Assembly (NCBI GenBank): GCA_938074205.1
Contig: CALJES010000005.1
Location: 10,136-74,135 of the forward strand
DNA: 64,000 nt
Direction: 5' to 3'
Source of the DNA: an uncultured bacterium
GTDB taxonomy: Bacteria; Armatimonadota; UBA5829
In this document: in pieces, positions 49,703-64,000 of the stretch
Layout of the letters: every line of letters begins with the position of its first letter
Numbering within the stretch: position 1 is the first letter of the stretch
The notes under the pieces: generated by a model
The model's input: the letters and a program-made list of their open reading frames with translations, nothing else
What the model was told of the DNA's origin: nothing
The model's database searches: none
Made by a program: the position numbers and the translations under genes

Positions 49703-50527
49703 ATGGCTGACAAGTTGAGAATAGGCGTGATGATGTCGCTGGGCAAAGACATCGACGCGGAAATGAAAAAGGTCCGCGACTTCGGCTTGGACAACTGCCA
49801 GCTCGCATGCTGGGATCCGAGCTTGTATACGGATCAGATGCTAGCAGCGGTCAAGAAGGCAGCCGGCGATTACGGGGTAGAGATAACTTCACTGTGGGCA
49901 GGCTACCCGGGCAAAGTGCATTGGAACTTCATCGACGGCCCTGCCACCATAGGCCTTGTCCCGCCGGAAACTCGCGAAATGCGCGTTCGGGCGCTGATAC
50001 AGGGAGTGGAGTTCGCATCGAAGCTGGGGGTTGCGTCGGCCACCACACACGCCGGGTTCATCCCCGAAAACCCCAAGGACCCCCTCTATGCAGGCACGAT
50101 TGACGCGCTCAAACAAGTCGCCGTGCGAGCCAAGGAATTGGGACTTCTATTCTGCTTCGAGACAGGGCAAGAAACCCCCATAACGCTTCTGCGGGCGATG
50201 GTCGATATCGGAACAGACAACCTGGGCGTTAACTTCGACCCGGCAAACCTGCTTATGTATGGCAAGGCAAACCCCGTGGATGCTCTAGATATACTGGGAC
50301 CGTATGTCAGGGGCGTGCACGCAAAGGACGGCGAGTATCCGACTAAGCCGACTCACCTTGGAGTCGAAAAGCCTCTTGGCGAGGGCAGGGTGAACTTCCC
50401 TGAATTCATCGCAAAGCTCAAGTCGTTCGGCTACAGCGGATGCCTCACCATAGAGCGAGAGATCAGCGGTCCGCAGCAGATTGAGGACATAAAGAAGGGC
50501 ATCCAATATCTGCAGCCGCTTTGCTAA
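49703..50527 (+). CDS. Sugar phosphate isomerase/epimerase (xylose isomerase-like TIM barrel)
   Basis: FETGQE, NFDPAN, HAKDG, LTIERE metal ligands. Confidence 0.85.
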   Translation: MADKLRIGVMMSLGKDIDAEMKKVRDFGLDNCQLACWDPSLYTDQMLAAVKKAAGDYGVEITSLWAGYPGKVHWNFIDGPATIGLVPPETREMRVRALIQGVEFASKLGVASATTHAGFIPENPKDPLYAGTIDALKQVAVRAKELGLLFCFETGQETPITLLRAMVDIGTDNLGVNFDPANLLMYGKANPVDALDILGPYVRGVHAKDGEYPTKPTHLGVEKPLGEGRVNFPEFIAKLKSFGYSGCLTIEREISGPQQIEDIKKGIQYLQPLC

Positions 50528-50537
50528 ATGCAAAGCG

Positions 50538-51467
50538 CTACTCGCCAGTTGGCGCGCCAAGCTCAGAAGGTATCCAATTCTCCAACACGCGCTGGGGCGT
50601 CAGCTCCTTAAACTTCAGCACCTTCCGAAGCGCGTCCAGCAGGTGCTCCTCCCTGATGGTTCCTATAAGCTCCGACTCAAGTATCTCGACGCCCCGCTCG
50701 CGCGCCTCTTTTTCGACGAAAGAATATACCTCCCACAGGCCGACCTCCTGCGGGCACGTTATGTTGAAGGAGACCTGCGCGATACCTCGGGATGCCAGGT
50801 AGAGCCCTATCGCCTTGACGCCGTGCATGCCCTTGCCCGATTTGCGAAGGTCGCGTATCTTGGCCGCTATGGAGCGAGCTATTTCGACATCCTTGGAAGC
50901 CAAGTTTATGTTGTAGGCGATCAGGGGTCCGCGAGCACCAACTGCGACGGCACCAGCAGTCGGATGTAAACGCGTAGGCCCCATATCCGGCGCGCGGTCT
51001 CCCACAAGTTCGACATTCCTGAGCGCTTCAAACCCACCTTTGCGAACGTTTTCCAAGCTGCGCCTTTCCGGAACCCTCGCGGATTCCTCGTAAAGGTATA
51101 CAGGCACGTCGAGGTACTCAGCAATGTCGGTGCCGATGGCGAAGGCCAGATTACAAGCGTCCTCCATGCTCGCATCTAACAGAGGCACCACAGGCACCAC
51201 ATCAACCGCTCCGATCCTCGGATGGACTCCCATGTGATGGTTGAGATTGATAAGCTCCACTGCAGCTCGAGCCCCTGCGAAAGCTGAGCGTCTGACGTCC
51301 TCCGCCGAGCCGAGAAATGTTACCACGCAGCGGTTATGGTCTGGATCCGCTGAGTAATCCGCCACAACGACATCGCTTGCCTCGGTGATGCGGCGCACTA
51401 TCTCCTCGACTACGCCTCTACGCCGGCCCTCGCTGAAATTGGGCACGCACTGAAAAAGCTTCGCCAA
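50538..51467 (-). CDS. ftcD: Glutamate formimidoyltransferase
   Basis: CVPNFSEGR, DHNR, HPRIGAVDVVP, QVSFN. Confidence 0.9.
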   Translation of the reverse strand: MAKLFQCVPNFSEGRRRGVVEEIVRRITEASDVVVADYSADPDHNRCVVTFLGSAEDVRRSAFAGARAAVELINLNHHMGVHPRIGAVDVVPVVPLLDASMEDACNLAFAIGTDIAEYLDVPVYLYEESARVPERRSLENVRKGGFEALRNVELVGDRAPDMGPTRLHPTAGAVAVGARGPLIAYNINLASKDVEIARSIAAKIRDLRKSGKGMHGVKAIGLYLASRGIAQVSFNITCPQEVGLWEVYSFVEKEARERGVEILESELIGTIREEHLLDALRKVLKFKELTPQRVLENWIPSELGAPTGE

Positions 51468-51500
51468 CGGAACACCTCCGCGGTATAGGGATGGATTAGG

Positions 51501-51530
51501 AATATACGACTGTTAGTAGTCTAGTGTCAA
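51501..51530 (-). promoter_or_regulatory. sigma70 promoter of ftcD
   Basis: TTGACA-18nt-TATATT. Confidence 0.55.
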
Positions 51531-51549
51531 GTGGCAAACATATCAATTG

Positions 51550-51584
51550 ACGGGGAGGCGCGAAAAATCCAGGCGCCTCCCCGT
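51550..51584 (-). terminator. Hairpin closing the capsid/lysis operon
   Basis: 12-bp stem ACGGGGAGGCGC/GCGCCTCCCCGT, about 60 nt after the endolysin stop. Confidence 0.55.
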
Positions 51585-51644
51585 TTAATCAACCCAGCAT
51601 CAGCGCTCGCCCACGCCTTAAGCCGCAACCAAATGCCATGCCCG

Positions 51645-52007
51645 CTACCTCCACTCCACGTGGCAGCCCTCCTGCGGAATCGTCGCCAATCCCAGTCGAG
51701 CGGCCTCTTGCTTTAGCTGCGCGTAGAACTCGGGCCAGTTCCAACCCCTCGACTTGCTTACGATGTCCGCAGCTCTGCCGGAAAGGTGCCGGCTGTTCAT
51801 CGTCCAGGTGACAGGCTTGCATCTTTTGTGATGCGTTCTGCCGTATCCGTAAAGCCATTCCTGGCGCTCGCGGCTGCGTGCGGCTTCGAATATTATCGGG
51901 TCGAATCCGCGTTCGGTCATGCGATCCAAAAGTCGCTCAACCTTGCGCCTAAACGGCTCCCAAAGCGAGTTTATGTCCGCACAGCGTGCAGGTTCCCGAG
52001 CTATCAT
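51645..52007 (-). CDS. M15 family peptidase endolysin (L-Ala-D-Glu peptidase-like)
   Basis: RSRERQEWLY, SRHLSGRAAD, EGCHVE zinc motifs; ATG overlaps the holin stop (ATGA). Confidence 0.82.
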   Translation of the reverse strand: MIAREPARCADINSLWEPFRRKVERLLDRMTERGFDPIIFEAARSRERQEWLYGYGRTHHKRCKPVTWTMNSRHLSGRAADIVSKSRGWNWPEFYAQLKQEAARLGLATIPQEGCHVEWR

Positions 52008-52327
52008 CTCTTGCCCCTTTTCCACTGCTGATAGACATGCTCAACCAGCAGATTCGCAATCGATTGCGGCACCGGAAACCCCAGCTTGCGCACCGTAAAC
52101 TCCTGCAAGTAAGTCACCGCCTGCGCACGTCGACCCTCAGGAGAAAGCTCTTCTATCGCGGCAGCACGCTCAATCGCATCCGTTATCCGTGCAAACCCGA
52201 TTCTGCGAAGCCATTTGCGCGCCCACGCCGGAAGCCTGTCCCTGCGAGCGGCAAGAGCCGTCAGAAAACCTACGATCCCCACTGCCAGGGATATCCAATC
52301 GTCCAACGGAACGCCTTTCCAATCCAT
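52004..52327 (-). CDS. Putative holin (single N-terminal TM, LL-H-like)
   Basis: One TM followed by a helical cytoplasmic domain, basic C-terminus, coupled to the endolysin. Confidence 0.6.
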   Translation of the reverse strand: MDWKGVPLDDWISLAVGIVGFLTALAARRDRLPAWARKWLRRIGFARITDAIERAAAIEELSPEGRRAQAVTYLQEFTVRKLGFPVPQSIANLLVEHVYQQWKRGKR

Positions 52328-52355
52328 AAACTCAAAGCTCCTTTCGCGAAATCCA

Positions 52356-52655
52356 CTAGGCGAGGATGGCGATCTTCACCACGATAGTCTCCCCGATTCG
52401 GTTGTTCGAAGTCTTCAGCACCGTATATGTGCGGCCGTCGCGGGTGATACGATCGTTGAGCGCAATGGGAACCTCAGGTCCGGTCACGAGCATCAAAGCA
52501 GGCCTTGCAACACCCATCAGCTCAACATCATCCAGATACGTGCGCATCGTCCCGGAGTTCAGGGGTGCAAATACGCCGTAATAGGTGTTTGAGCCCAACA
52601 CAAACCTCTCGCCGTATGTGGCGATTTTCCGTTTGACGCGCTCTAGAAGCCTCAT
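52356..52655 (-). CDS. Putative head-closure (stopper) protein
   Basis: 99 aa, beta-rich, NDRITRDGRTYTV motif typical of FII/gp16-like proteins; ATG directly after the adaptor stop. Confidence 0.55.
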   Translation of the reverse strand: MRLLERVKRKIATYGERFVLGSNTYYGVFAPLNSGTMRTYLDDVELMGVARPALMLVTGPEVPIALNDRITRDGRTYTVLKTSNNRIGETIVVKIAILA

Positions 52656-53084
52656 CTACCAAACCTCCTCGCCGATAGAAAAAACCGTCTGCGCGTCCTT
52701 CGTGTTACTCGACGTGCCGCTTTCGGACATCATCGGCAGCATGCTTTTAAGAAACGGCGCAAGACGCGTCGCCCCCTGCTGGATGAGATCCACTCCCTGC
52801 CGTGAGCGTTCTCCAATAGACAACCCCGCCACTGAAAACTGCTCAGCTGCGCCAGCTTCTCGCGCCAACTGCTCCAGGAACTCGCCAGTTATTATCTCCA
52901 GCATCCCCAACTTGAGCACAGCCTGCAGGTTCTCATCGGCAGTGTTCGCCAAGTGCTCCGGCGAAATAGAAAATTCGAGCGTGGGCTGCAACTCAGCTAT
53001 CAAGGCTGAGATTGCGGAGTCGTAATCCGAGGTGGTTATCATCGCCTTGCGCTTGACTTCGGCCGCGGTGATAGTTATCGCCAT
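52656..53084 (-). CDS. Putative head-tail adaptor (gp6/gp15-like)
   Basis: Helical, ITAAEVK...DSAISALI N-terminus, immediately after the MCP. Confidence 0.55.
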   Translation of the reverse strand: MAITITAAEVKRKAMITTSDYDSAISALIAELQPTLEFSISPEHLANTADENLQAVLKLGMLEIITGEFLEQLAREAGAAEQFSVAGLSIGERSRQGVDLIQQGATRLAPFLKSMLPMMSESGTSSNTKDAQTVFSIGEEVW

Positions 53085-53102
53085 AGGTCGCTCCTTTCTA
53101 GG

Positions 53103-54008
53103 CTAGCTAACCTGGCTTCCGTAAGCTGTCTGCCAGAGGCCGTAGCCTGCATTGTAGCGAGCGCGGACGCCGTATATGTATTGATCGCGCATAAACCCGC
53201 TCTCGGAGTCTGCCTCGAGAGCCGCGAACTCCACCGGCGTGCGAAGCTGGAGCAGAATGGGCTTGAGGATCCCTTTTGTCGAAAGGACGAACCAGTTGTT
53301 GGGATCAGTCAGATACGGCGATACGATCAAATCCAGCTTGCCACGCAGAACGTTGGAAGATAGCCTGGCAGTGGTTGAGCCCTCCTCTGGCCAGTAGGTG
53401 GATTCCAAAAGCTCCATGGCGGTCCACTGCAGGTCTGGGGGCACCACCAGCACGTCTGGCACAATTCCCAACAGCTTCCCGCGATCGTCCTTGAACTTCA
53501 TCATCGCCGTAATCGCGCTCTGAAGCGCGGCAGCATCCAGAGGAAGCGTCCCCTTGTTCGACTGCGTCCCGGATTCGCCTGTAGCATGGTCAGTGTCGAA
53601 GAAATACTGGCCGTCATAACACGGCGTGCTGAACCCGTTTGCAAGCAGGGTAAACACCAGCTCGTCCATATGGCGCTTCACCTCGCGCGCCAGCGACTGC
53701 ACGCGCAGCCTGATTTGGCCGTATTTATCGTCCTCGATTGCTGCGCGCTCTATTGCGATAGAGGACTCCCAGGTCTTGTTTCGGATGGTGTAACTGTGCT
53801 CCAGAAGTCCCAGAGGCATGCGTTCATCTGTGAACTCCCTAACTCTTGGCACAGCTCCCAGCCAGGCGTATACTTCCTCGTCAGATTCGGACGGCACTAT
53901 TGTCGCGATGCGCTCGTAGTCGCCGACCGCCGAATCCAGCGCCTCGAAGAACACGGTTTTCAGTCCGTCCTCGAGCAGTTTGGGTGTATCTGATCTGGTA
54001 AGCGGCAT
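53103..54008 (-). CDS. Mu-like major capsid protein (gpT family)
   Basis: YAWLG, AIEDDKYG, CYDGQYFFDTDH signature, LVVPPDL, YGVRARYNAGYGLWQ; ATG 54008 after GAAAGGAG. Confidence 0.88.
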   Translation of the reverse strand: MPLTRSDTPKLLEDGLKTVFFEALDSAVGDYERIATIVPSESDEEVYAWLGAVPRVREFTDERMPLGLLEHSYTIRNKTWESSIAIERAAIEDDKYGQIRLRVQSLAREVKRHMDELVFTLLANGFSTPCYDGQYFFDTDHATGESGTQSNKGTLPLDAAALQSAITAMMKFKDDRGKLLGIVPDVLVVPPDLQWTAMELLESTYWPEEGSTTARLSSNVLRGKLDLIVSPYLTDPNNWFVLSTKGILKPILLQLRTPVEFAALEADSESGFMRDQYIYGVRARYNAGYGLWQTAYGSQVS

Positions 54009-54075
54009 TGTGTTGCTCCTTTCTTGGTATGTTGATAGTTGTAGTAGGCCGGCAACAGCAGGCTGTGCCGGCTTT

Positions 54076-54492
54076 TTAACTTGCGTATCGGTCGATGCGG
54101 ATTCGCACCTGTGTGGGCGATATGCTCTCGACGGCCACTCCGGCCTTGATGCCATTTGTGGTTGCGGCGTCGGTGACGGTTTGGTTGTCCACTATATTGA
54201 ACTCGACGCCTACGTCCGTCTGCGCGCCGTTTGCCCCGCCGTCGATAAAGACGAAAGTGCCTGTGGTTTCAACCCTGATCGACAGATCTCCAGGGTTGCC
54301 GGCGGAGTTATCGAGCGTTTCGTAGGCTACGCCTGCGAACTTTTCGCCTGCGGTATCCGAGGCATTTGTGGCGTAGCCGGCGGAGTTGATGCTGACCAGC
54401 GCGCCCTTAGGGATCTTCACGGCAGCCATCGGATAGCTGATCAGCTTGCCATCTTTTCTCTTTGCTTCTCTTGCTGTTGTGGTTGCGGTCAT
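54076..54492 (-). CDS. Capsid decoration/cement protein (Mu-like)
   Basis: 138 aa, KIPKGALV...FAGVAYE..DNSAG; located between protease and MCP. Confidence 0.65.
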   Translation of the reverse strand: MTATTTAREAKRKDGKLISYPMAAVKIPKGALVSINSAGYATNASDTAGEKFAGVAYETLDNSAGNPGDLSIRVETTGTFVFIDGGANGAQTDVGVEFNIVDNQTVTDAATTNGIKAGVAVESISPTQVRIRIDRYAS

Positions 54493-54548
54493 GGTATGCT
54501 CCTTTCGTGTTGTGATTTGCCGCTATGCGGCGGCAGAGATGATGCGCA

Positions 54549-54950
54549 TTGCCGAAAGACCCCATCCCCAACCAGATAGATCGAATTGGAAACCGGCGGC
54601 TGGCGGGGTGTACGGCTAAGTTCGCGGCACTGCTGCTTGTGGGGATCGGCGTTTTGGCTGTCACCACTCGGACTACACGCGATCCGGGCACCAGGTTCGC
54701 AGTAGCTGTGGGGCTTTGCGGGCTGCTTTTCGGATTTTACGTGTCGCTTCTTTCGACGTGGGCAAGCAGGGTTCTCAGTTGGTTCTTTGTGCTGTTCCCG
54801 ATAGCCGCCACGCTGGTGATGTATGTATGCCGGACGATGCTGGGCTGGTCTGACGAGCTGCCGCTGAGATTGGTTCTTGCGCCGCTTGCGTTTGCCGCCG
54901 GTTTCCTGGTGGGGAAGGGGAGGTTAGCAAGGGTTCAGCGGTTGCGGTAG
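54549..54950 (+). CDS. Hypothetical four-TM membrane protein, antisense to the capsid module
   Basis: Four hydrophobic segments; fills the gap between protease and decoration genes; weak TTG start. Confidence 0.5.
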   Translation: MPKDPIPNQIDRIGNRRLAGCTAKFAALLLVGIGVLAVTTRTTRDPGTRFAVAVGLCGLLFGFYVSLLSTWASRVLSWFFVLFPIAATLVMYVCRTMLGWSDELPLRLVLAPLAFAAGFLVGKGRLARVQRLR

Positions 54951-55672
54951 CGCTCTACTTGGCTCGTGGTGACGCCTAGCTTGGCGAATACCTCGGGCTC
55001 CTCGCCTGCGATATCCCCTGCCTCAGCTAGCTCAGCAAATTCGATCACCTTCGGCTGAGACTCCAGAAACCACAAAAACAACCTCCTGACTGGCATAGCC
55101 TCACCGCCGAACGTTATCGCGTTGGAGTCGTCCGACTCGAGTATCGCCCTTGCGAAAAGCTCCGCTGCTGGCACGAGCTTGCCCTCGCGCTTGAGCCTTT
55201 CTATCTCGATTTCGGCATCTTTGCGGCGGATTTCTTGGCGAAGCCGCTCAGCCTCGGTAACTGCGGAAAACGGCTCGTCAAGGACTAGCTCCGATTGCGC
55301 CGGAATAGATAACTGGCTGCCGGCGAAGACCGTGGCGTCGGCGACTCTCGGCTCGCGCACGAGCGAAACCTCCAAAATTGCGCTTTTATCGTTTCGAAGG
55401 GCGACCGAAAGCCGACGCGCGTTTGCGGCCTTCACAAGCTCCCAGGCAGCGCGGGTGAATCGGAGCCTGCCGAAGAGTTCCTTGCCCTTGCGGTATACGG
55501 ACTTCACGACCCCGAGCGCGCCGTCGAAAGGTGTGGCGATGTGCTCAATGCGTATAGGTGCTTCGGTCGTATTTTGGACGATGCGATCGAGGTCCTCTTC
55601 TGTTATCTCGACTCCTCTATCTGGATAACTACCCGCCTCAAATAACTTGGCTTCTCTTTCGATTGTGTCCAC
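54935..55672 (-). CDS. Prohead protease-scaffold fusion (Mu gpI/HK97-type)
   Basis: IRIEH, LEVSLVREP, C-terminal coiled coil ending KLGVT; GTG 55672 after AGGAAGGGAG. Confidence 0.72.
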   Translation of the reverse strand: MDTIEREAKLFEAGSYPDRGVEITEEDLDRIVQNTTEAPIRIEHIATPFDGALGVVKSVYRKGKELFGRLRFTRAAWELVKAANARRLSVALRNDKSAILEVSLVREPRVADATVFAGSQLSIPAQSELVLDEPFSAVTEAERLRQEIRRKDAEIEIERLKREGKLVPAAELFARAILESDDSNAITFGGEAMPVRRLFLWFLESQPKVIEFAELAEAGDIAGEEPEVFAKLGVTTSQVERYRNR

Positions 55673-55694
55673 GTTGATCTTAACTCCCTTCCTT

Positions 55695-56960
55695 TCAAAT
55701 TTCTGACGGTGAAACATTTCCATCCCCCGGAATACCCAGGTACTCCCGAATCCAGCCCTCGTTCGGCCGCACCACATTGCCCGCCACCAGTTTGGCTATC
55801 ACATCAGCAAGCGACTCCAAATCCCGATCCTCAAGCGGACCCAGACTGAAAACGGGATACGCACCGGCACTGAAGTTGTAGTCAACCAGTCGCCGGATCA
55901 CCTGCTCGCGCATAATCGACTCCTCCAGGTCCCGCTTCAGCTTCGCCAGGCACATCTTCAACACGCTCAGGTGCACCTTCGCAAGCGCAAACGAGCCGAC
56001 GCGCATGCCCTCCTCAGTGAGCAATGTCTGATGCAGGATAGCCTTTGCAATCTGCCTGTCGTGAAACTCCAGCGCCTGCAAATATCCTGCCTCGCCGCCC
56101 CTGTGCGCCTCCAGAAGCTCGATCTGCACATCTTCCGGGATGACTATCGCCGTCTCCTGTTGGATCTTCTCGAGCACGCGCAGCAGCTCTTCCTGGGCAG
56201 CCTTCGGCGTGCCGCGTTTGTAGGAGCCTTTTGCCGTAGGCGAGCCGTATTTCTCCAAGTAAAGGTTCATAAACCGCATCAGCACGTCTTTCGACCAGTA
56301 GTGCTTATAGGCGGCGCGCAGATCGGACGTGCCGTAAGGCGATTCATACCGCGGATTGTAAGAGTAGATTATGAACTTCTCCGGCGGCAGGTGCGTTTCG
56401 TTGATATTAGCCTTTCCCACCACAGGCGATGATCCCGCGAATCCCGTGCGTTTCAGCGACTTTATGTTCAGAAACTCATCTGTCACGAACTCGAAGGTGG
56501 ACGGGTCCTTCGCCTTGATCGAAGCAAGCCCTATCATGCCGGCGTAAGGCTGCCTGTCGATGATGCGGTAGTTTATCTCGAGTATAGAAAAGCCTTTCGC
56601 AATGGCGTCCAGCGCATTGGCGAGCACGTCCAAGATGGAGCCGCGCATATCCTCCAGCGCAAAACGGACGAAATCTGCAATGCGAACGTCCTCCGGATAA
56701 TCCGAAGCAGGATGTATTTCCCAACCGCGGGAGAGCACTGCAAACTTCTTGATCGCCAGGCAGGCTTGAACTTGCGCGTCCTGCTGCATCTGATCATAAA
56801 CCGCGTATCCTCGCTTGCCCACAAGATCGTCCGGGTTGCACGGCGGAATGCCCTTCAGCACGGCAGGCAAACCTCCGCGAGCCGAGGCAACCTCCCCAAG
56901 CGGCGGCGGACGCCGAAGACTTGCCTTGCGCGCAAACGCATGAAAAAACCGAATTGACAT
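55695..56960 (-). CDS. Portal protein (DUF935/Mu gp29-like)
   Basis: DAQVQAC, LDAIAKGFS, YESPYG, LEKYGSP, QIAKAILHQTL, GSFALAKVH. Confidence 0.85.
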   Translation of the reverse strand: MSIRFFHAFARKASLRRPPPLGEVASARGGLPAVLKGIPPCNPDDLVGKRGYAVYDQMQQDAQVQACLAIKKFAVLSRGWEIHPASDYPEDVRIADFVRFALEDMRGSILDVLANALDAIAKGFSILEINYRIIDRQPYAGMIGLASIKAKDPSTFEFVTDEFLNIKSLKRTGFAGSSPVVGKANINETHLPPEKFIIYSYNPRYESPYGTSDLRAAYKHYWSKDVLMRFMNLYLEKYGSPTAKGSYKRGTPKAAQEELLRVLEKIQQETAIVIPEDVQIELLEAHRGGEAGYLQALEFHDRQIAKAILHQTLLTEEGMRVGSFALAKVHLSVLKMCLAKLKRDLEESIMREQVIRRLVDYNFSAGAYPVFSLGPLEDRDLESLADVIAKLVAGNVVRPNEGWIREYLGIPGDGNVSPSEI

Positions 56961-57102
56961 ACTCAAACATTCTCCTTTCATGTATAGTGGGCTCTAGTGT
57001 AATATGTTTGCGTTCGCCTGTGCGCCGGCTGAGCTTCACTTGATCCGGGATGCTAAGAATGACAACTGACAAACACAGCAATACGCGTTCGGAGGTGTAA
57101 GA

Positions 57103-57963
57103 ATGGACATAATCTCGCAAATATTCTGGTTCATAATCCTGATATCGTTCATGCTGCCGGGCTTCAAGCAGCGGATGCTGGATTCCGCTCGATTGCGCCT
57201 CATACACTTGCTCGAAAAGAAGCGAGGCTCCCGCGTCATTACCCTAATTCACCGCCAGGAGCAGATGGCTTTATTCGGCATCCCCTTCTTCCGCTACATT
57301 AACATCGACGACAGCGAGCAAGTCCTCAGAGCGATACGGCTCACACCTGCGCACATGCCAATCGACATGGTTCTGCACACACCGGGAGGTCTGGTGCTCG
57401 CAAGCGAACAGATTGCAATGGCTCTTCGCGCCCACGAAGCTCCCGTTACCGTGTTCGTGCCCCACTACGCTATGTCCGGAGGCACGATGATAGCCCTGGC
57501 CGCAAATCATATCGTTATGGACAAGAACGCCGTGCTGGGGCCGGTCGACCCCCAACTGGGCGAGTATCCGGCTGCCTCGATCATCAAAGCAGTTGAAACC
57601 AAACCCATAAGCGAAGTCGAGGACAAAACCCTCATATACGCCGATATAGCTCGCAAGGCAATCGACCAGGTCAGATGCGTGCTCAAATATCTGCTAGCCG
57701 AAAAGTTCGACGAGGCCAAAGCCGAAGAGCTTGCGCGCACACTCAGCGAAGGACGCTGGACCCACGACTATCCGATCACCGTCGATGAGCTAATTGAAAT
57801 GGGAATCGACGTGTCCACAGACGTCCCCGAAGAAGTATATGCCCTGATGGATCTATATCCTCAGCCGGCACAGCGCAGACCCAGCGTGGAGTTCATCCCG
57901 ATGCCCTACGGTCCGCCTTCCCTGCCAACACCTAAACCCGGGCAGAAAGGTGACAAGGTTTGA
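57103..57963 (+). CDS. SDH-type ClpP-fold serine protease (DUF114/SDH_sah)
   Basis: N-terminal TM, LHTPGG, YAMSGGTMIAL, GPVDPQ, WTHDYP; GGAGG RBS. Confidence 0.85.
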   Translation: MDIISQIFWFIILISFMLPGFKQRMLDSARLRLIHLLEKKRGSRVITLIHRQEQMALFGIPFFRYINIDDSEQVLRAIRLTPAHMPIDMVLHTPGGLVLASEQIAMALRAHEAPVTVFVPHYAMSGGTMIALAANHIVMDKNAVLGPVDPQLGEYPAASIIKAVETKPISEVEDKTLIYADIARKAIDQVRCVLKYLLAEKFDEAKAEELARTLSEGRWTHDYPITVDELIEMGIDVSTDVPEEVYALMDLYPQPAQRRPSVEFIPMPYGPPSLPTPKPGQKGDKV

Positions 57964-57981
57964 ATCCGACCGCGCCACGTT

Positions 57982-58359
57982 TTAGGCGTCGACAACTGCA
58001 AAGATCAGCCCCAGGTTTCCCTCCGGGAACGCCATCGCGCCCATGAACTCGTCATAGGCTGCCCAATACACCGTGTACGTGCCAGCGGGAAGCCCCAAGG
58101 TAGCCAACACCGGCTGCTGGGCAATTCCGCGAAGAACCAACAGTAGGTCCCAGTTGGTAAGGCTCGGAGCAGCATCGAATCTGACGGCGACCATCGCGGG
58201 ACAGCCGTCGGCAAGTGCCACCGCCCCAATGGTAACTTTTGAATCTTCGGCCAGCGCAAGAGTAAAGCTGCCGCTGCTTTCGCCACCGACATCCGCGATC
58301 TGGATGCCTCGCCTGGTGCGAAGCGAGGTCTGAATGGGTATTACGTTTTGAGTGGCCAC
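57982..58359 (-). CDS. Hypothetical beta-rich protein
   Basis: 125 aa, GTG start after AAGGAGG. Confidence 0.55.
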   Translation of the reverse strand: MATQNVIPIQTSLRTRRGIQIADVGGESSGSFTLALAEDSKVTIGAVALADGCPAMVAVRFDAAPSLTNWDLLLVLRGIAQQPVLATLGLPAGTYTVYWAAYDEFMGAMAFPEGNLGLIFAVVDA

Positions 58360-58403
58360 GCGTTTTCCTCCTTGGAACGTATTCGATGGTCGATAAAAAC
58401 TGC

Positions 58404-58430
58404 AAAAAAAGACCCGCCTTTCGGCGGGTC
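58404..58430 (-). terminator. Intrinsic terminator of the PEP-CTERM gene
   Basis: GACCCGCC-GAAA-GGCGGGTC-T7 on the minus strand. Confidence 0.85.
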
Positions 58431-58461
58431 AAAAGGAAACTCGTTCTGCGTTCTGACTTGA

Positions 58462-59208
58462 CTAACTTCTGCGGCGCCTAAGCACGAACATCGTGCCCCC
58501 AACTCCCGTCAGCACAGCCAAGAATCCGCCCGGCTCAGGGATTTCGCGCACTCGGAAGCTCGAAGTTCCGCTCGCCAGGTCAAATGGTGTAAGGTCGAAC
58601 TGGAACTCCGACTGCATGTCGTAGATGTTCCCTACGAACTGCCACGGTGGCACGGTTTCCCCAACAGCGATCGTTCCGTAAGCCGGCACAATCACCGGGC
58701 CGCTTACCAGGTACGCAAAGGTAGCGAACCCCGGGCTGTTGTACCTGGCCTCGTAGAACTTCCCACCAGGGAAAAGCCCGTTAGCAATTGCACCACCGAC
58801 AGCACCACCCTGTTCATCGCCATCAGTAACGGTGATACCCGCGGTGGCCGTTGCTTCCCCTAGGATTGCTGGGAAGATCAGCAGGCCCGATGTGATCACA
58901 AATGTCGTGGTCGCGTGACCTGCCTGCACGTTGAAGGCCAGGTTGATGATCGGGTCAGGGTCCACAGAAATTAGCACCTGCTTGATGACGGCGCCGTTGG
59001 CAAGACTGATATCGCGCCATTCTTTCTGTAGCATCCCATTGTAGCCCGCCAGTTCGGCCGCGTTGTCTATCACAACGCTGACGGCTACAACGTTTCCTTC
59101 ACTGCGCACCGCCAGCGCCCAACCCTCAGTCGACGGAGCTGCGCTCGCAGAGCACGCCGCAACTATCGCCAGAACCAAAACCACTGCTCCCAACCAACTC
59201 GCTCTCAT
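58462..59208 (-). CDS. PEP-CTERM surface protein
   Basis: Signal peptide; C-terminal IPEPGG, TM segment and RRRRS. Confidence 0.85.
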   Translation of the reverse strand: MRASWLGAVVLVLAIVAACSASAAPSTEGWALAVRSEGNVVAVSVVIDNAAELAGYNGMLQKEWRDISLANGAVIKQVLISVDPDPIINLAFNVQAGHATTTFVITSGLLIFPAILGEATATAGITVTDGDEQGGAVGGAIANGLFPGGKFYEARYNSPGFATFAYLVSGPVIVPAYGTIAVGETVPPWQFVGNIYDMQSEFQFDLTPFDLASGTSSFRVREIPEPGGFLAVLTGVGGTMFVLRRRRS

Positions 59209-59285
59209 AGCACCTTTCCTCCAATCCTTGTGGCGCTTCTGCATTTGGGAGTCAAGCAAGGGCACCACGTCCCTCGTCAGTTCGC

Positions 59286-59314
59286 AATATATCCCAAGGT
59301 ACGGGGTTTGTCAA
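59286..59314 (-). promoter_or_regulatory. sigma70 promoter of the PEP-CTERM gene
   Basis: TTGACA-17nt-TATATT. Confidence 0.65.
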
Positions 59315-59379
59315 CCGTCCGTAGAAAATTTTATTCAACTATTTTTTGGGCTTGTTTTTGGGCTCCAATTAGTATTGTG

Positions 59380-60702
59380 TCACCATCCGTACATTGTAGA
59401 CCTCATGCCGCTTGCTAAGTAACTCGCCGATGCGCCCATTTGCCTCGCCTGTCTACACGCAAGGGCCAACGCGACAACTAAATCATCGGTGCAGCCAGCG
59501 CCTGCCTGTAGCCTAACATTGCCCGCTTCGGTCAGCCGATACTCGAAATACTGCAGCTCGCGCAGGAGCTCCTCGTGCCGAGGAATCGCAATCGCCCTCC
59601 GAGCAAACCTCAGCGCCAGCTCATCAATCAGCTCGCGCTTCGACTGATTTGTGAACACAATGCCTTCCACACGCGTATCCAGGCAATCCTCATACGCTCT
59701 TGCTCTCAATTGTTCTAGTAGAGGATCGCCAATGGATGTTTGATCAGTCAAAACCGCTGAAACCCCATGCCGCCGCAGAAAATCCACGGCCCGGTTGATC
59801 TGCAGGTGCCAACTGATTCCATTAAACCGTTCGATCCCTGTAACCGCCAGCGTAGACCCGGCAACTCCCACAGCCACAAGCGCGGTGTAATCGCCGTAGC
59901 GCGCCCAGTCAATCCCTGCCGCCACAAACTCGTAATCGGGCGCGTTGGGATGATAGTCCGCAAGCGCCGCTTCGATATCGTCCCACGTAAATACGCTCGA
60001 CTGGTCATCCACAAACTGCGCCTCGTATTCGACAGCAAACTGCCTCGGCGTAAGCTCTGCCCGTTGCGACTCAATGTACTCCCTACAGATGTGAGGGTTC
60101 AACCACGACGGAAACCGAAAAGAACGTATCGGCCGCGCGTGGTTGGAAGAGCTACTATTCATCTGTCCTTGCACGAATGCCCTGTAGAAATGGTTCTTAC
60201 CGAACGGGGTGGAGATCATCACCAGTTTTCCCCCATTATCGGCGAGCATCGGAGCTATCACCTCTTGAATTACGCTGTCTCGGACGTAGGCGGCCTCGTC
60301 CACTATTACCCTGTGCGCGGCGTGCCCGCGCAGGTTGCGGCCGTCTTCGTCGGCTGTGCGAGCCATAATCAAACTGCGCCCCACGTTGATTTTGGGATAC
60401 GGCGTGCGGATGACCTTAGTCACGCTGCGCGTCAGGCTCGAACCCAACAGCAACCTCTCAACCGTATCCGATATCAGGCGGCTCTGGTCATAGGTGGGGC
60501 TAACTACCATCTGAACGCTGCCCGGACAGGCTATCGCCATAGATGCCACGTCCACGGCTGCTGACTCAGTCTTTCCCCATCTTCGCCCACACGCAGCAAC
60601 CTTGACCGGCGAATCATCCAGCATCCAAATCCTCTGCGTCTCATGCGGCTTCCATCCCCAAATCCACTTTGCAATCATCAGGCGTTTCTTAGGCTCAAGC
60701 AT
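59380..60702 (-). CDS. Terminase large subunit
   Basis: Walker A GRRWGKT, Walker B IVDEAAY, coupling motif ISTP, nuclease acidic motifs GIDWA, DYT and DDLV; ATG overlaps the terS stop. Confidence 0.9.
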   Translation of the reverse strand: MLEPKKRLMIAKWIWGWKPHETQRIWMLDDSPVKVAACGRRWGKTESAAVDVASMAIACPGSVQMVVSPTYDQSRLISDTVERLLLGSSLTRSVTKVIRTPYPKINVGRSLIMARTADEDGRNLRGHAAHRVIVDEAAYVRDSVIQEVIAPMLADNGGKLVMISTPFGKNHFYRAFVQGQMNSSSSNHARPIRSFRFPSWLNPHICREYIESQRAELTPRQFAVEYEAQFVDDQSSVFTWDDIEAALADYHPNAPDYEFVAAGIDWARYGDYTALVAVGVAGSTLAVTGIERFNGISWHLQINRAVDFLRRHGVSAVLTDQTSIGDPLLEQLRARAYEDCLDTRVEGIVFTNQSKRELIDELALRFARRAIAIPRHEELLRELQYFEYRLTEAGNVRLQAGAGCTDDLVVALALACRQARQMGASASYLASGMRSTMYGW

Positions 60703-61069
60703 CGGAAGCCTCCTCATCAGAAGCCGCAAGCGCCCGATTGACGATCTCCCCCAGCGCATCAACGGGGTCCTGGGCAGGCGTTTCGAAGGCGCCGCTGAGT
60801 TTGAGCGTTTCGAGAAGGACCTTCGGGTCCGGCTTGGCCGTGCCGCCATTGGTCTCGCAGAGTGCAGCAGCAGCCTTGAGCGCAGCCTGCCGCGCAAGCC
60901 GGAAAAGCGAACGAGCCTGCTGCTTCTCGCGCTCGCGCAGCGCATCCGCAAAGTCGGGCATTCTCATCCAACGCATAAGCGTCCTCAGCCGCACGCCGAC
61001 CATCTCAGCAACCATCCAATCCGGATAGTTCATCAACAACTCTACAGCAAGTGCACGCTTGGCATTCAT
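60695..61069 (-). CDS. Putative terminase small subunit (N-terminal HTH)
   Basis: VAEMVGVRLRTLMRW HTH followed by helices; 8-nt overlap with terL; GGGAGGT RBS. Confidence 0.62.
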   Translation of the reverse strand: MNAKRALAVELLMNYPDWMVAEMVGVRLRTLMRWMRMPDFADALREREKQQARSLFRLARQAALKAAAALCETNGGTAKPDPKVLLETLKLSGAFETPAQDPVDALGEIVNRALAASDEEASDA

Positions 61070-61194
61070 CTGAAAATTTACCTCCCATAATTACAAGCCC
61101 ACAAAACGGGCATTTTGCTCTTAAGATGGCAAGATATTTCTGTTAAATGTTGTTCACTGGTGGTGTACACACTCGAGGCGCGCTACACCGATGT

Positions 61195-61224
61195 TTGCAT
61201 TTTGAGGTCCGCTTGCGGTAAACT
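61195..61224 (+). promoter_or_regulatory. Putative sigma70 promoter upstream of the riboswitch
   Basis: TTGCAT-18nt-TAAACT. Confidence 0.45.
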
Positions 61225-61254
61225 AGGTAAGCATCGAAAATACGGGTTAGCTTT

Positions 61255-61376
61255 AGAAGGGGAGTAGCAGCCCGGGAGCTTCGTCGCTTTCGGGAAGGTG
61301 GTGTCAACATCCTGCCTTGCGTGTTTGGTGCAAGGCTGGCGCCCCTGCAGAGAATATCTGCAATGCGAGACCTTTG
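61255..61376 (+). ncRNA. yybP-ykoY (manganese) riboswitch
   Basis: AAGGGGAGTAGC, GTCAACA and GCGAGACCTT hallmark segments upstream of a cation exchanger. Confidence 0.85.
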
Positions 61377-61414
61377 TTCCGATCTACTGGTGTGGCGGGA
61401 CAGAGGTCTTTTTT
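61368..61414 (+). terminator. Riboswitch expression-platform terminator
   Basis: AGACCTTTGTTCCG pairs with CGGGACAGAGGTCT, followed by a T tract; overlaps the 3' strand of aptamer P1. Confidence 0.7.
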
Positions 61415-61423
61415 GGTGTGGAT

Positions 61424-62428
61424 ATGATGACGTTTATAGGCTTAATCGGCGGACTGGTAATCATATTCTTCGCGGCTGAGCTTTTTACCAACGCAATCGA
61501 GTGGTTCGGCAAAAGGCTGGACCTGAGCGAGGGAGCTGTGGGCAGTGTGCTTGCAGCGGTCGGCACGGCATTGCCGGAGACATCAGTAGCGCTAGTCGCT
61601 GTTCTAGCCGACGGCGCAGGCCATATGGAGGCAGGCATTGGAGCGATACTCGGCGCGCCTATGATGCTCAGCACGCTGGCTATGTTTATGACGGGCTTGG
61701 CTGTGGTAGTATTTGCGGCGATGGGGCGCAGGAAGTTTACCGTGAAGGCAGACTACCAAGTTGTCGGTAGGGATTTGCGCTCGTTTTTCAGCGTATACAT
61801 CCTCGCGCTTGTCGCCGCCCTTATCCCCGGCAAGGCCTACAAGCTGCCGATAGCCGTATTTCTGCTTGCGGCTTACGCGTATTACGTCCATAGGACGTTT
61901 AACGCGCGCAAAGAAAACCAAGAGTCCGAGAAACTTAGGCCGCTTCACTTTCACCGCAACTCATCCCGGCCTCGGCTAAGGCTAGTTTTGGTACAACTTT
62001 TCTGCGGGCTAGCGCTTATGCTGTTCGGAGCGCGCACATTTGTGGAGTCGGTGACACAGGCATCCAAATCTATGGGTGTATCTCCCCTTGTCTTGAGCCT
62101 CATAATCACCCCCATAGCTACTGAGCTTCCTGAGAAGTTCAATTCGATAACCTGGGTGAGGCATCGGAAGGACACCTTGGCGCTTGGCAATATAACGGGT
62201 GCGATGGTGTTCCAGAGCAGTATTTTGCCTGCGGTGGGGATATTCGCCACGCCCTGGCACCTTGACGCCCAGGCCGTCGCAAGTATCATTGTAGCCTTGT
62301 TGGCATCATTTGTGGCTTGGGCTGAGATGACTATTCGCAAGAGACTCAGCCCGTATTCGCTGCTTGCTTGCGGGCTTTTCTACGCCTTGTATCCGGTGTT
62401 TGTTTTTGTGATTCTGCCTAGAATATGA
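61424..62428 (+). CDS. Ca2+/cation antiporter (CaCA, YrbG-like)
   Basis: alpha-1 GTALPE and alpha-2 ATELPE repeats, GNITG, about 10 TMs. Confidence 0.88.
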   Translation: MMTFIGLIGGLVIIFFAAELFTNAIEWFGKRLDLSEGAVGSVLAAVGTALPETSVALVAVLADGAGHMEAGIGAILGAPMMLSTLAMFMTGLAVVVFAAMGRRKFTVKADYQVVGRDLRSFFSVYILALVAALIPGKAYKLPIAVFLLAAYAYYVHRTFNARKENQESEKLRPLHFHRNSSRPRLRLVLVQLFCGLALMLFGARTFVESVTQASKSMGVSPLVLSLIITPIATELPEKFNSITWVRHRKDTLALGNITGAMVFQSSILPAVGIFATPWHLDAQAVASIIVALLASFVAWAEMTIRKRLSPYSLLACGLFYALYPVFVFVILPRI

Positions 62429-64000
62429 GCGCACTTCACACAGACTATTTCCTGGGCCTAGACATCTCCACGCAGACGGTGACGGCGCTTATCATCGGAG
62501 TTTCGAGCCGCGACGGCATCCCCGCAGAGATTATCCTGGAGCCCGATTGGCGAAGCTTGCGGCCCTGGGGCTCAGAATCGGACCGCAAGTCCCCTGATGT
62601 GTGGGTCGAATTGGCCAGGCAGGCAATTGATGAGCTAAAGTCGCGATGTGCTCACGCACGCGAAGTTCGCGCCCTAGGGGTGAGCACCGCCTTCCCAGGC
62701 ATATTCGCAATCCTGCGCGACGGAAGCATCCACCCGCAGTTTGTAAGCCTATATGACAACACCAGCGATGCTGGCGTACCCGACGAGGTATTCCATGACC
62801 TGCTTGCAGCTGCGGAAGACGATACGATGAACCGCATGTGGCCCGGAAACATGGCCATAGGCCTGGCGCACCTGGTCAAGGATTGCGGATTGCCGTTGAG
62901 GGAAGTGTCTGCCCTCGTGCCGCCGAATACCGCGTTTTCTTATGCGCTGGCGAGAGCATGCCGCGCCGATGTGGATTTGCGCGCGTTGCCGACCGATTTC
63001 ACCCAGGCAATAATAAGCGGCCTGTATGATGCCAGAACTGCTTTGCCCGTGCCAGAGGGCGTGGCGAAGTTTTTGAAAAGTTTCCTGCCGTCCATGGATG
63101 GCGCACAAGTAGCCCAGTTGCTGCCTCGCGCGGTGCCCTCGTGGCGCAACAGCGTGCCCAGCTCAGTTCTGGGAGACGTGCGCGAAGCATTTGGACTGCC
63201 TCACCTGAAAGCAATATCGGTCGGCGCGGGCGACAGTCCGTTGGGGGCGCTGGCGTTGGGTGCCGGCGGCGACAATGTTCTAAACGTGCGCGGCTCCAGC
63301 GACTCGCCGGTCCTCACGGTTCCCTCGATTAAACCGAGGCGCACGCCCAGGGAGACTGTGTTGCATTACCCGCTTCCGACGGTAACTTCCCCCTCGGATT
63401 CGCCTTGGTGCGTGGTAGCGCCGATGCTTCGAAGCGGCAGGGTATGGGACTGGGTGAAAAGACTGCGGTTCACCGAGGAGGATTCCGATGCGGACGCACA
63501 CCTGGAAGCCCTCGCCACGGAAGCCCTGAAGCGACGGTTCGAAGCCGGCGTGCCGCCAATTTCGTTCGACACGGCACTAGGCGGAGAAAGGGCTCCGGAT
63601 TGGGATGCTCACGCCACCGGGCGCATACAAGGTCTGGTCGAACAGCACGGGTTGGGTGACATTGCGCTGGCTGCGCTAGAAGGGCTTTCCGTTAGGCTGA
63701 GATGCTGCGTCGGCCTTATGGAATCGCGCTACGAAATGTCTGCGCCAAAGCTGGTGCTAGCCGGCGGTCCGGCAAAAAACGACCTGTGGAGCTGGATTAC
63801 AGGCTTGTTCCTGGGCAAGCAAACTTATCGGAGTGGGTTCACGGATGCTTCGGTGCTGGGAGCGGCGATGTTGGGTTATGCAACTAGCCTCGATGGTCTG
63901 CACCCAGATGCCGAAATCTCGCGTCGCCTTAGGCTGCTGGCTGCGTTGGCCACCCAACACCCGGCCGTTCGCGCCTACCCTGTAGCTGCTCCGGATGATA
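62425..64000 (+). CDS. FGGY family carbohydrate kinase (partial, runs off the window; absent from the ORF track)
   Basis: ATGA overlap with the antiporter stop; MSALHTDYFLGLDISTQ, GAGD, GGERAPDW, ALAALEG, AGGPAK, SVLGAA. Confidence 0.8.
   Translation, partial: MSALHTDYFLGLDISTQTVTALIIGVSSRDGIPAEIILEPDWRSLRPWGSESDRKSPDVWVELARQAIDELKSRCAHAREVRALGVSTAFPGIFAILRDGSIHPQFVSLYDNTSDAGVPDEVFHDLLAAAEDDTMNRMWPGNMAIGLAHLVKDCGLPLREVSALVPPNTAFSYALARACRADVDLRALPTDFTQAIISGLYDARTALPVPEGVAKFLKSFLPSMDGAQVAQLLPRAVPSWRNSVPSSVLGDVREAFGLPHLKAISVGAGDSPLGALALGAGGDNVLNVRGSSDSPVLTVPSIKPRRTPRETVLHYPLPTVTSPSDSPWCVVAPMLRSGRVWDWVKRLRFTEEDSDADAHLEALATEALKRRFEAGVPPISFDTALGGERAPDWDAHATGRIQGLVEQHGLGDIALAALEGLSVRLRCCVGLMESRYEMSAPKLVLAGGPAKNDLWSWITGLFLGKQTYRSGFTDASVLGAAMLGYATSLDGLHPDAEISRRLRLLAALATQHPAVRAYPVAAPDD

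Follow-up and report, generated by a model that had tools for sequence, protein, structure and literature searches.

A Mu-type head-plus-lysis gene module lacking recognised tail genes, conserved in Armatimonadota: a candidate domesticated capsid system

We have examined a 64,000-nucleotide stretch of DNA (the window) on contig C5 of the genome of an uncultured member of the Armatimonadota (G000; 3.02 Mb, 19 contigs, 97.9% complete) and find that it carries an intact set of packaging, capsid, neck and lysis genes of phage Mu type, located on the minus strand at 51645-61069, with all frames open on reading of the open reading frames (ORFs). The genes of this module are intact, co-inherited and under purifying selection, and tail, replication or integration genes do not accompany them. 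Vertical inheritance of the module in at least one class of the phylum is the best explanation of the sequence comparisons. We consider it probable, if well short of certain, that the module is a host-maintained, domesticated apparatus which would make tail-less, plugged, DNA-filled capsids. The particle, its cargo and its delivery form the putative mechanism outlined in the Discussion.

Gene content and boundaries of the module

The original prediction, made from the sequence of the window, described ten co-oriented genes in canonical order. All ten are open and lie on the minus strand, but they are not contiguous, as a 2.4-kb insertion with three ORFs, one of them on the plus strand, parts terL from the portal gene. 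Identities proposed for the large terminase, portal, gpT capsid protein and protease-scaffold were borne out by Pfam and PHROG matches. terL (59380-60699, ORF up to 60951; ~439 aa) matches Terminase_6N (E 3.1e-11), Terminase_6C and phrog_2 (E 4e-44), and its start is likely at 60699 because relatives align only from about residue 85 of the ORF. The Walker A (CGRRWGKT), Walker B (VDEAA) and nuclease Asp motifs, described earlier as recognisable, are invariant in 23/23 genomes. The Mu-type portal gene (55695-56981) matches PF06074 (E 1e-73) and phrog_113 (E 4.2e-90), and the gene for the gpI-like head maturation protease/scaffold (54935-55777) matches phrog_976 (E 2.7e-12), its PF10123 score of 20.1 bits lying under the cut-off of 25.2. 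The 302-aa major capsid protein (53103-54011, ORF up to 54155) belongs to the Mu gpT family (PF10124, E 2.8e-79) and has 8rkc (E 5.5e-58) and 9jod as solved relatives; its start was fixed at 54011 (MPLTRSD), since relatives share that start and the first 48 residues of the ORF are unconserved.

Other assignments stood in part. The terS-like gene (60695-61069, 124 aa), detected by tblastn in 18/23 genomes with fetched loci, agrees with a small terminase subunit in its position upstream of terL, the probable start of which (60699) falls one base within its stop, and in its phrog_7344 match, although the latter is weak (E 1.7e-4). The predicted decoration protein is a 138-aa virion structural protein (54076-54492; phrog_1731, E 2.4e-24), 32-93% identical over 22 sequences; a PDB profile search gave no relative, and it is a candidate for the decoration function, that label being unconfirmed. 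The ORF predicted to encode a head-tail adaptor, p142 (52656-53084), is present and is a candidate for this role by its position between the capsid and stopper genes only: it has no Pfam or PHROG family and 0 PDB profile matches, Foldseek against PDB and BFVD gave none at E<=0.001 for its five-helix model (pLDDT 76), and the nearest Atlas clusters are unnamed hypotheticals of Armatimonadota and Uroviricota. A complex prediction of p142 with p99 (score 0.01) gave no answer and weighs neither way. The stopper call was upheld by the structure model of p99 (52356-52655; pLDDT 90.9), which has the SPP1 gp16/lambda gpFII fold and resembles phage stopper or head-completion proteins with Foldseek probability 1.0 and TM 0.5-0.65. 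The best match is the T1 stopper 9l0e_A (E 3.9e-3, TM 0.61), followed by the Pam3 neck, the lambda neck (8k37_M, 8xow_f) and SPP1 gp16 (2kca, 7z4w); a PDB profile search with p99 gave a chance-level match only.

In this locus as in those of relatives, the gene of the holin-like p107 (52004-52327) is found directly upstream of a lysin gene. The protein possesses one N-terminal hydrophobic helix (11 orthologues aligned), has no family match in Pfam or PHROG scans and is a putative holin. The endolysin of VanY/M15 metallopeptidase type (51645-52025) was correctly named: it matches the endolysin family phrog_465 (E 3.8e-12), scores just below the cut-off for PF02557 (23.2 bits, cut-off 25) and carries the motif SRHLSGRAAD and a later His, read from the sequence. 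The gene is conserved in the relatives G003 and G001. On the left, the module is bounded by ftcD (50538-51467), as had been claimed. The Mn riboswitch of the operon proposed for the other boundary was not found, there being no Rfam family at gathering score in 50000-64000, nor in 60900-61500 at E<=1, and the right neighbour is a Na/Ca-exchanger family gene (61298-62428).

Distribution, inheritance and selection

The original prediction proposed to look for orthologues in relatives, single copy number, congruence with the host tree and a ratio of nonsynonymous to synonymous substitution rates (dN/dS) well below 1, and each of these, single copy and congruence for the greater part, was found. 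The panel comprised 41 genomes, namely G000 and 40 relatives as distant as class rank. The capsid gene was detected in 35/41 and terL in exactly those 35, with one copy of the module nearly always; the additional copy seen in G010 belongs to a true phage. Wider sampling detected the capsid gene in 46/52 other genomes of the window's class, distributed over five families as 23/27, 6/6, 2/2, 10/11 and 5/6. In a sample of the phylum the gene occurs in 134/401 genomes, with some families near-saturated (17/18, 20/29) and none of the members of others carrying it (0/27, 0/13, 0/12, 0/11). Capsid identity is 87% at the rank of genus, mostly 76-82% within the family with six divergent genera at 50-64%, 67-74% within the order and 55-68% within the class.

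Co-divergence with the host was assessed from a concatenated seven-gene module tree and an rpoB tree of 21 genomes. The two trees are largely congruent, having 13/18 splits in common, whereas 2000 label shuffles left 0.3 in common on average and never more than 4, and the splits that differ are deep, several with low support. Patristic distances of module and rpoB are correlated (r = 0.89, pairs with G018 excluded on account of its very long branch), the module evolving at ~1.8x the rate of rpoB. terL and the capsid gene are both retained even where they are on separate contigs, as in G007, G018, G034, G036 and G040.

Selection was estimated by the Nei-Gojobori method in six within-genus pairs for terS, terL, portal, protease, 138-aa protein, capsid, p142, p99 and p107. 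dN/dS ranged from 0.019 to 0.18 over these nine genes, compared with 0.025-0.054 for rpoB, at a dS of 0.14-4 that is saturated in two comparisons. Values were 0.04-0.09 for terS, 0.035-0.063 for the portal, 0.04-0.085 for the protease, 0.019-0.071 for the capsid, 0.076-0.125 for p142 and 0.10-0.18 for p99, with those for the 138-aa gene of G011 and the capsid gene of G023 left out as frameshift or stop artefacts. One pair of the same genus, G017/G011 (L013/L014), has a dS of 0.14-0.31 from terS to the capsid gene (five genes of this six-gene block, the 138-aa gene being split and therefore omitted), whereas rpoB is at 0.61 and p99 and p107 are at 0.83-0.89. The block thus seems to be of more recent date than the genomes, as if the two species had undergone a recent homologous exchange.

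Three IMG/VR contigs filed as viral (L164, L165, L166) have the same head-only layout, with capsids 69-81% identical to that of the window, and are probably chromosomal fragments of Armatimonadota.

Architecture of related loci

Gene order persists throughout the class, running terS-terL-portal-protease-138-aa protein-capsid-p142-p99 in most of 20 fetched loci, p142-p99 being displaced in G014 and G004. The genes recurring in these 15-20 kb loci are those of head, neck and lysis only, and no conserved tail module, transposase or replication block stands beside the head genes; likewise, comparison of 76 loci revealed no conserved same-strand gene past the lysis genes after the module. The lysin slot following the holin-like gene is occupied by VanY in the window's genus, while 16 loci have Amidase_3 there and another 8 have NlpC/P60. 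As judged from these family assignments, the slot is a case of non-orthologous replacement at a conserved position, in which the predicted function is kept while the enzyme is swapped.

Host synteny near the locus is short. In G003, another species of the same genus, blocks shared with G000 extend over only 3-6 genes; contigs G003:C108 and G003:C171 map onto G000 contigs C4, C5, C11 and C14, and RpoB is 93% identical. This is very low synteny for such RpoB identity. With a background of just 3-6 genes, conserved flanks are uninformative on vertical descent.

Searches for tail, transposase and integrase genes

As originally claimed, no integrase, transposase, replication or tail family was detected among the ORFs between ftcD and the exchanger gene in Pfam and PHROG scans. 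The proposed scan of the remaining genome for unlinked tail, transposase and phage-integrase genes likewise found none in G000. Phage_sheath_1, PhageMin_Tail (tape measure), Baseplate_J, Phage_tube and Sipho_tail had no match; rve had none in G000 with its control positive in 6 genomes, and neither Phage_T4_gp19 nor PF02914 (DDE_2) matched, but the controls for both were silent. G000 has only two tyrosine recombinases, on contigs C18 and C11, away from the module. In tblastn searches against G000, the ORFs that follow the capsid gene in related phage contigs (a set of eight and one of seven) recovered head genes only, and a myovirus prophage of relatives recovered nothing tail-like. The module is present in the closed genomes G014, G017 and G039, which have no sheath or tape-measure match.

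The myovirus-like prophage is a collinear element of ~18 kb or more found in 9-11/41 relatives across three families (L121-L128, at G010:C67, G016:C9, G023:C160, G003:C123, G025:C1, G009:C7, G032:C77 and G022:C55, respectively). Scaffold, capsid (phrog_2522), neck, tube and baseplate-like proteins are encoded on it, together with a large DNA methyltransferase, a sheath protein of 615 aa and a tape measure of ~1000-1200 aa, and such conserved synteny across families is unusual for a prophage. Its sheath/tape-measure cluster was considered as the missing tail half of the module and rejected, as it has its own capsid and scaffold, occurs in 11/41 genomes and is absent from G000.

Related phages

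Contigs of true phages, L028 in G010 and L168-L170 and L175 from IMG/VR, share with the module only portal, protease, 138-aa protein or capsid and continue in long same-strand ORF runs that have no homologue in G000. In L028, at least 8 same-strand ORFs follow the capsid gene, where G000 has the lysin gene and then ftcD; only 1/8 of these tail-side ORFs has a PHROG match, which is weak and to a family of unknown function. The phage-like labels of L028, L168, L169, L170, L079 and L095 are assigned from reading of ORF maps. A metric counting same-strand runs after the capsid gene was tried for sorting loci and dropped, as shadow ORFs distort it and the window itself scored 0. L175/L226 (IMGVR_UViG_3300029286_000095, 42369 bases) has capsid gene matches at both contig ends, as though the phage genome were complete and either terminally redundant or circular; with a capsid 55% identical to that of the module, it would serve well as a reference for the ancestral type of phage.

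Discussion

The module resembles several known systems without coinciding with any of them. Gene transfer agents (GTAs) are inherited with the host over long times, under purifying selection, and are released by lysis; their particles hold random pieces of host DNA, an amount too small for the entire producing locus, and pass it to recipient cells. To our knowledge every characterised GTA is tailed, and the cases known to us in which phages were independently domesticated into gene-transfer particles are few and likewise all tailed; defective prophages that have become domesticated are reportedly the subject of work by Bobay et al. in 2014. Like RcGTA of Alphaproteobacteria, BaGTA, VSH-1, Dd1 and VTA, the module is a phage-derived chromosomal structural cluster without replication or integration genes, with long-term host inheritance and purifying selection on the structural genes. 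It differs in that family and tblastn searches of G000 recognised no tail genes, in heads that are of Mu gpT/portal rather than HK97/RcGTA type, and in the location of the lysis genes inside the cluster. Since all GTAs known to us are tailed and no tail was found here, the term GTA is an analogy and does not imply membership. GTAs are treated more widely in two general papers (PMC11841831, PMC5721377).

Phage-inducible chromosomal islands that form capsids (cf-PICIs) encode terS, terL, portal, protease, capsid and head-tail connectors of their own, have no tail genes, and free tail-less DNA-filled capsids which are later tailed by other phages (10.1101/2025.02.11.637232). Integrase, regulator and replication genes, excision and identical copies across species are further features of cf-PICIs (see also 10.1101/2025.02.11.637232). 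The module likewise has its own packaging, capsid and connector genes and no tail genes found, but has no integrase, AlpA-type regulator or primase/rep-type replication gene in or next to it, and no horizontal spread is seen, identity falling with host rank and trees being congruent. Thus the module is GTA-like in evolution and cf-PICI-like in anatomy, and it is a member of neither family, as the tail that defines the one and the integrase/replication module and horizontal spread that define the other are missing.

In Thaumarchaeota, head-tail provirus-like loci with a seemingly functional morphogenesis module and no att sites or replication genes have been put forward as domesticated elements and are described, in the passage considered, as possibly GTA-like, few, highly divergent and judged separate in origin (PMC6563490); class-wide orthology or a selection test, such as available for the module, does not appear in that passage. 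With Mu itself the module shares the gpT capsid, the Mu portal, the gpI-type protease/scaffold and a T4-type large terminase of the headful family. It lacks the tail module, the regulatory region and a gpF-like minor head protein, which the related phage L028 has, and G000 has no transposase match (rve, and PF02914 with its silent control), nor do the window flanks. From a neutral prophage remnant it differs by the absence of pseudogenes in G000, of strain-specific presence and of dN/dS near 1. We found no account of the module in the Armatimonadota/Armatimonadetes literature on gene transfer agents, Mu-like elements and prophages, supplementary files aside, and public annotation of the capsid gene reads 'Mu-like prophage major head subunit gpT family protein', nothing more.

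If the module is host-maintained as we propose, its action may be envisaged as follows. In some of the cells of a population, proheads would be assembled from the portal, gpI protease/scaffold, gpT capsid and 138-aa virion protein. TerS and TerL, members of a headful-type terminase family, would begin packaging on the unexcised chromosome, and the host DNA that fills the heads would be taken up at random or else processively, starting at a pac site within the locus or close to it. The portal channel would then be shut by p142, the adaptor candidate, and by the stopper p99, and p107 with the peptidoglycan hydrolase would lyse the producer and let out tail-less, DNase-resistant, DNA-filled capsids. 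In lambda and SPP1 the stopper is the surface at which tails dock, which makes tail capture the most concrete route of DNA delivery: the capsids would take tails of unrelated phages, as shown for cf-PICI capsids. Uptake of released DNA would be an alternative route. In its fullest form the proposal would make the module a further gene-transfer system of independent domestication and the first head-only one, vertically inherited and organelle-like, its Mu-type capsids filled in situ from the chromosome, with the stopper as a universal tail dock and with release by lysis, its capsids becoming infectious after capture of unrelated phages' tails or serving as DNase-proof DNA parcels. We regard this fuller version as speculative and rather doubtful. 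If it were true, tail piracy would be a host-owned trait and not a trick of satellites alone.

Several observations weigh against the host-maintained capsid reading. A module without a tail is a module without a known delivery device. The tail search comprised seven Pfam families and tblastn, and tail genes could exist in unrecognisable form. Module GC is 56.6% compared with 51.7% for the genome, and GC at third codon positions (0.64-0.70) exceeds the genome 95th percentile of 0.63, although the adjoining host gene ftcD itself has 0.66. Flanking genes differ even within the genus, which fits a mobile element too, and a strong terminator-like hairpin between terL and the portal gene in G000 means that coordinated expression of the module is not assured. 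Six of the 41 genomes are without the module, and as three of these (G012, G033, G038) are 96-99% complete, it is dispensable. Some metagenome-assembled genomes (MAGs) contain split or broken genes, with the 138-aa gene of G011 split, a TAG in the capsid gene of G023 and terL in pieces in G002 and G031. Lastly, in capsid trees from which identical sequences and those <250 aa were removed, phage capsids (L028, L168, L169 and L170, 54-61% identical) interleave with host copies, L169 being sister to family f5 with support of 95-98 and L028 and L168 forming long branches near f1. Resolution is lacking in the deep part of the capsid tree, and monophyly of 19 core host rows, a group named after a first tree was seen, was neither rejected by the approximately unbiased test (p 0.42) nor demonstrated. 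Phages and the module may therefore have exchanged head genes, or capture may have occurred more than once. Thus, while every proposed in-silico test that was run favoured domestication over random decay, as the original prediction had it, phage interleaving leaves a single clean domestication undemonstrated.

Four other explanations were weighed against the host-maintained capsid reading. That the module is one part of a complete tailed GTA, with tail genes at other places in the genome whose divergence put them beyond the reach of the families and queries used, is unlikely. Such scattering would have precedent, RcGTA genes being spread across several loci, and the module is already divided between contigs in five relatives; the adaptor candidate and stopper are retained under selection, as tail docking requires, and the near lack of PHROG matches among the tail-side ORFs of L028 indicates that tails of this lineage are hard to recognise. 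G000, however, has no sheath, tape-measure, Baseplate_J, Phage_tube or Sipho_tail match (the T4 gp19 control being silent), the post-capsid ORFs of phages recovered nothing but head genes, and no same-strand gene is conserved past the lysis genes in the 76 loci. A selfish, satellite-like element, which would package itself and neighbouring DNA, spread on pirated tails and persist for its own benefit, we also judge to have little chance of being the answer. The module neither contains nor adjoins a gene for an integrase, excisionase, regulator or replication protein, and this argues against it, as do a distribution and trees that follow the host to class level and host genes inside the cluster, even though in anatomy, with terS, terL, portal, protease, capsid and connectors but no tail, it equals the capsid module of a cf-PICI. 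Variation of the flanks between species of one genus would suit such an element, but flank turnover equals the very short background synteny; the low dS of the G017/G011 block (0.14-0.31, rpoB 0.61) would fit recent exchange; and the myovirus prophage of 11/41 relatives is a possible tail donor, but one missing from G000 and most carriers.

Purifying selection shows function but not its kind, and the module could be conserved for a role other than DNA transfer. It could serve programmed lysis that frees DNA for the biofilm matrix, act as a decoy in abortive infection, or interfere with related phages via shared capsid and scaffold proteins. Related phages share only portal, protease, 138-aa protein and capsid, an obvious interference target, and genes of cyclic di-GMP (c-di-GMP) turnover adjoin the 138-aa protein gene in f2 and Capsulimonadaceae loci. 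Lysis or interference would, however, not need invariant terminase motifs, portal and stopper together, and a role of this type appears improbable. Least credible is an ordinary, decaying and functionless Mu-like prophage remnant, which we consider most improbable: the tail, Mu gpF-like protein, transposase and regulators are indeed missing and a few relatives have frameshifts or stops, but all ten genes are open in G000, dN/dS is 0.02-0.18 at saturated or high dS, and the same genes are kept in 35/41 relatives and 46/52 sampled class genomes. Distribution, tree congruence and selection already contradict such a remnant and rule out random decay.

In a phylum that has been studied very little, a tail-less head-plus-lysis module kept under selection throughout a class would be a new lineage and would join two fields, those of GTAs and of tail-pirating satellites. 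'Mu-like prophage' calls in Armatimonadota MAGs, and some IMG/VR contigs (L164-L166), probably concern host genes, which is a warning for annotation. The ten defined genes also constitute a concrete set expressible in a laboratory host.

Inserted ORFs and neighbouring genes

The terL-portal junction is an insertion hot spot. Spacing between the two genes is 0-360 nt in most loci, and the 2.4-kb insertion of G000 comprises three ORFs. The first encodes a 268-aa PEP-CTERM-type exported protein (58462-59268, minus strand), named from its C-terminal PEP...RRRRS tail and without Pfam or PHROG match; the gene, also present in G003, has a promoter-like site at 59314-59286 (11/12 matches) and a hairpin with T-run at 58430-58411. 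The second, a 125-aa ORF (57982-58359, minus strand), has no family match in Pfam or PHROG and has homologues inside the cluster, at varying positions, in G001, G002 and L164. The third, on the plus strand (57103-57963), is a host-type gene for a ClpP-like SDH serine protease (PF01972, E 7e-124), found also in the terL-portal gap of G001 and G002 (85-86% identity) where the gap is covered. PEP-CTERM genes occupy this gap in three lineages (window 58462-59268; L037:1875-3618; L063:4650-5189), having been either inserted independently or kept, and in another genus the gap holds a MIP-type channel gene, as read from the sequence.

Between the protease and 138-aa protein genes, a hydrophobic 133-aa ORF on the plus strand (54549-54950) may encode a membrane protein, its status as a gene being uncertain. 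ORFs 33% identical to it are found at the same place in G017 and G011; it has no Pfam match, and a hidden Markov model found no further homologues. It may represent either a genuine gene for a small membrane protein or merely a shadow frame that has been conserved. Descent from the GGDEF gene that occupies this slot in other families was considered and dropped, no similarity having been found. Family f2 has a GGDEF gene, read from the opposite strand, directly upstream of that for the 138-aa protein (L020, L023, L024, L030 and L053, loci of f2 and other families), and in Capsulimonadaceae loci (L064-L083), where the head genes are in another order, a PAS-GGDEF-EAL gene is at the same place. 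The occurrence of a diguanylate cyclase neighbour in two distantly related groups may reflect a c-di-GMP regulatory link, and the recurring GGDEF/EAL neighbour hints at c-di-GMP control of the module.

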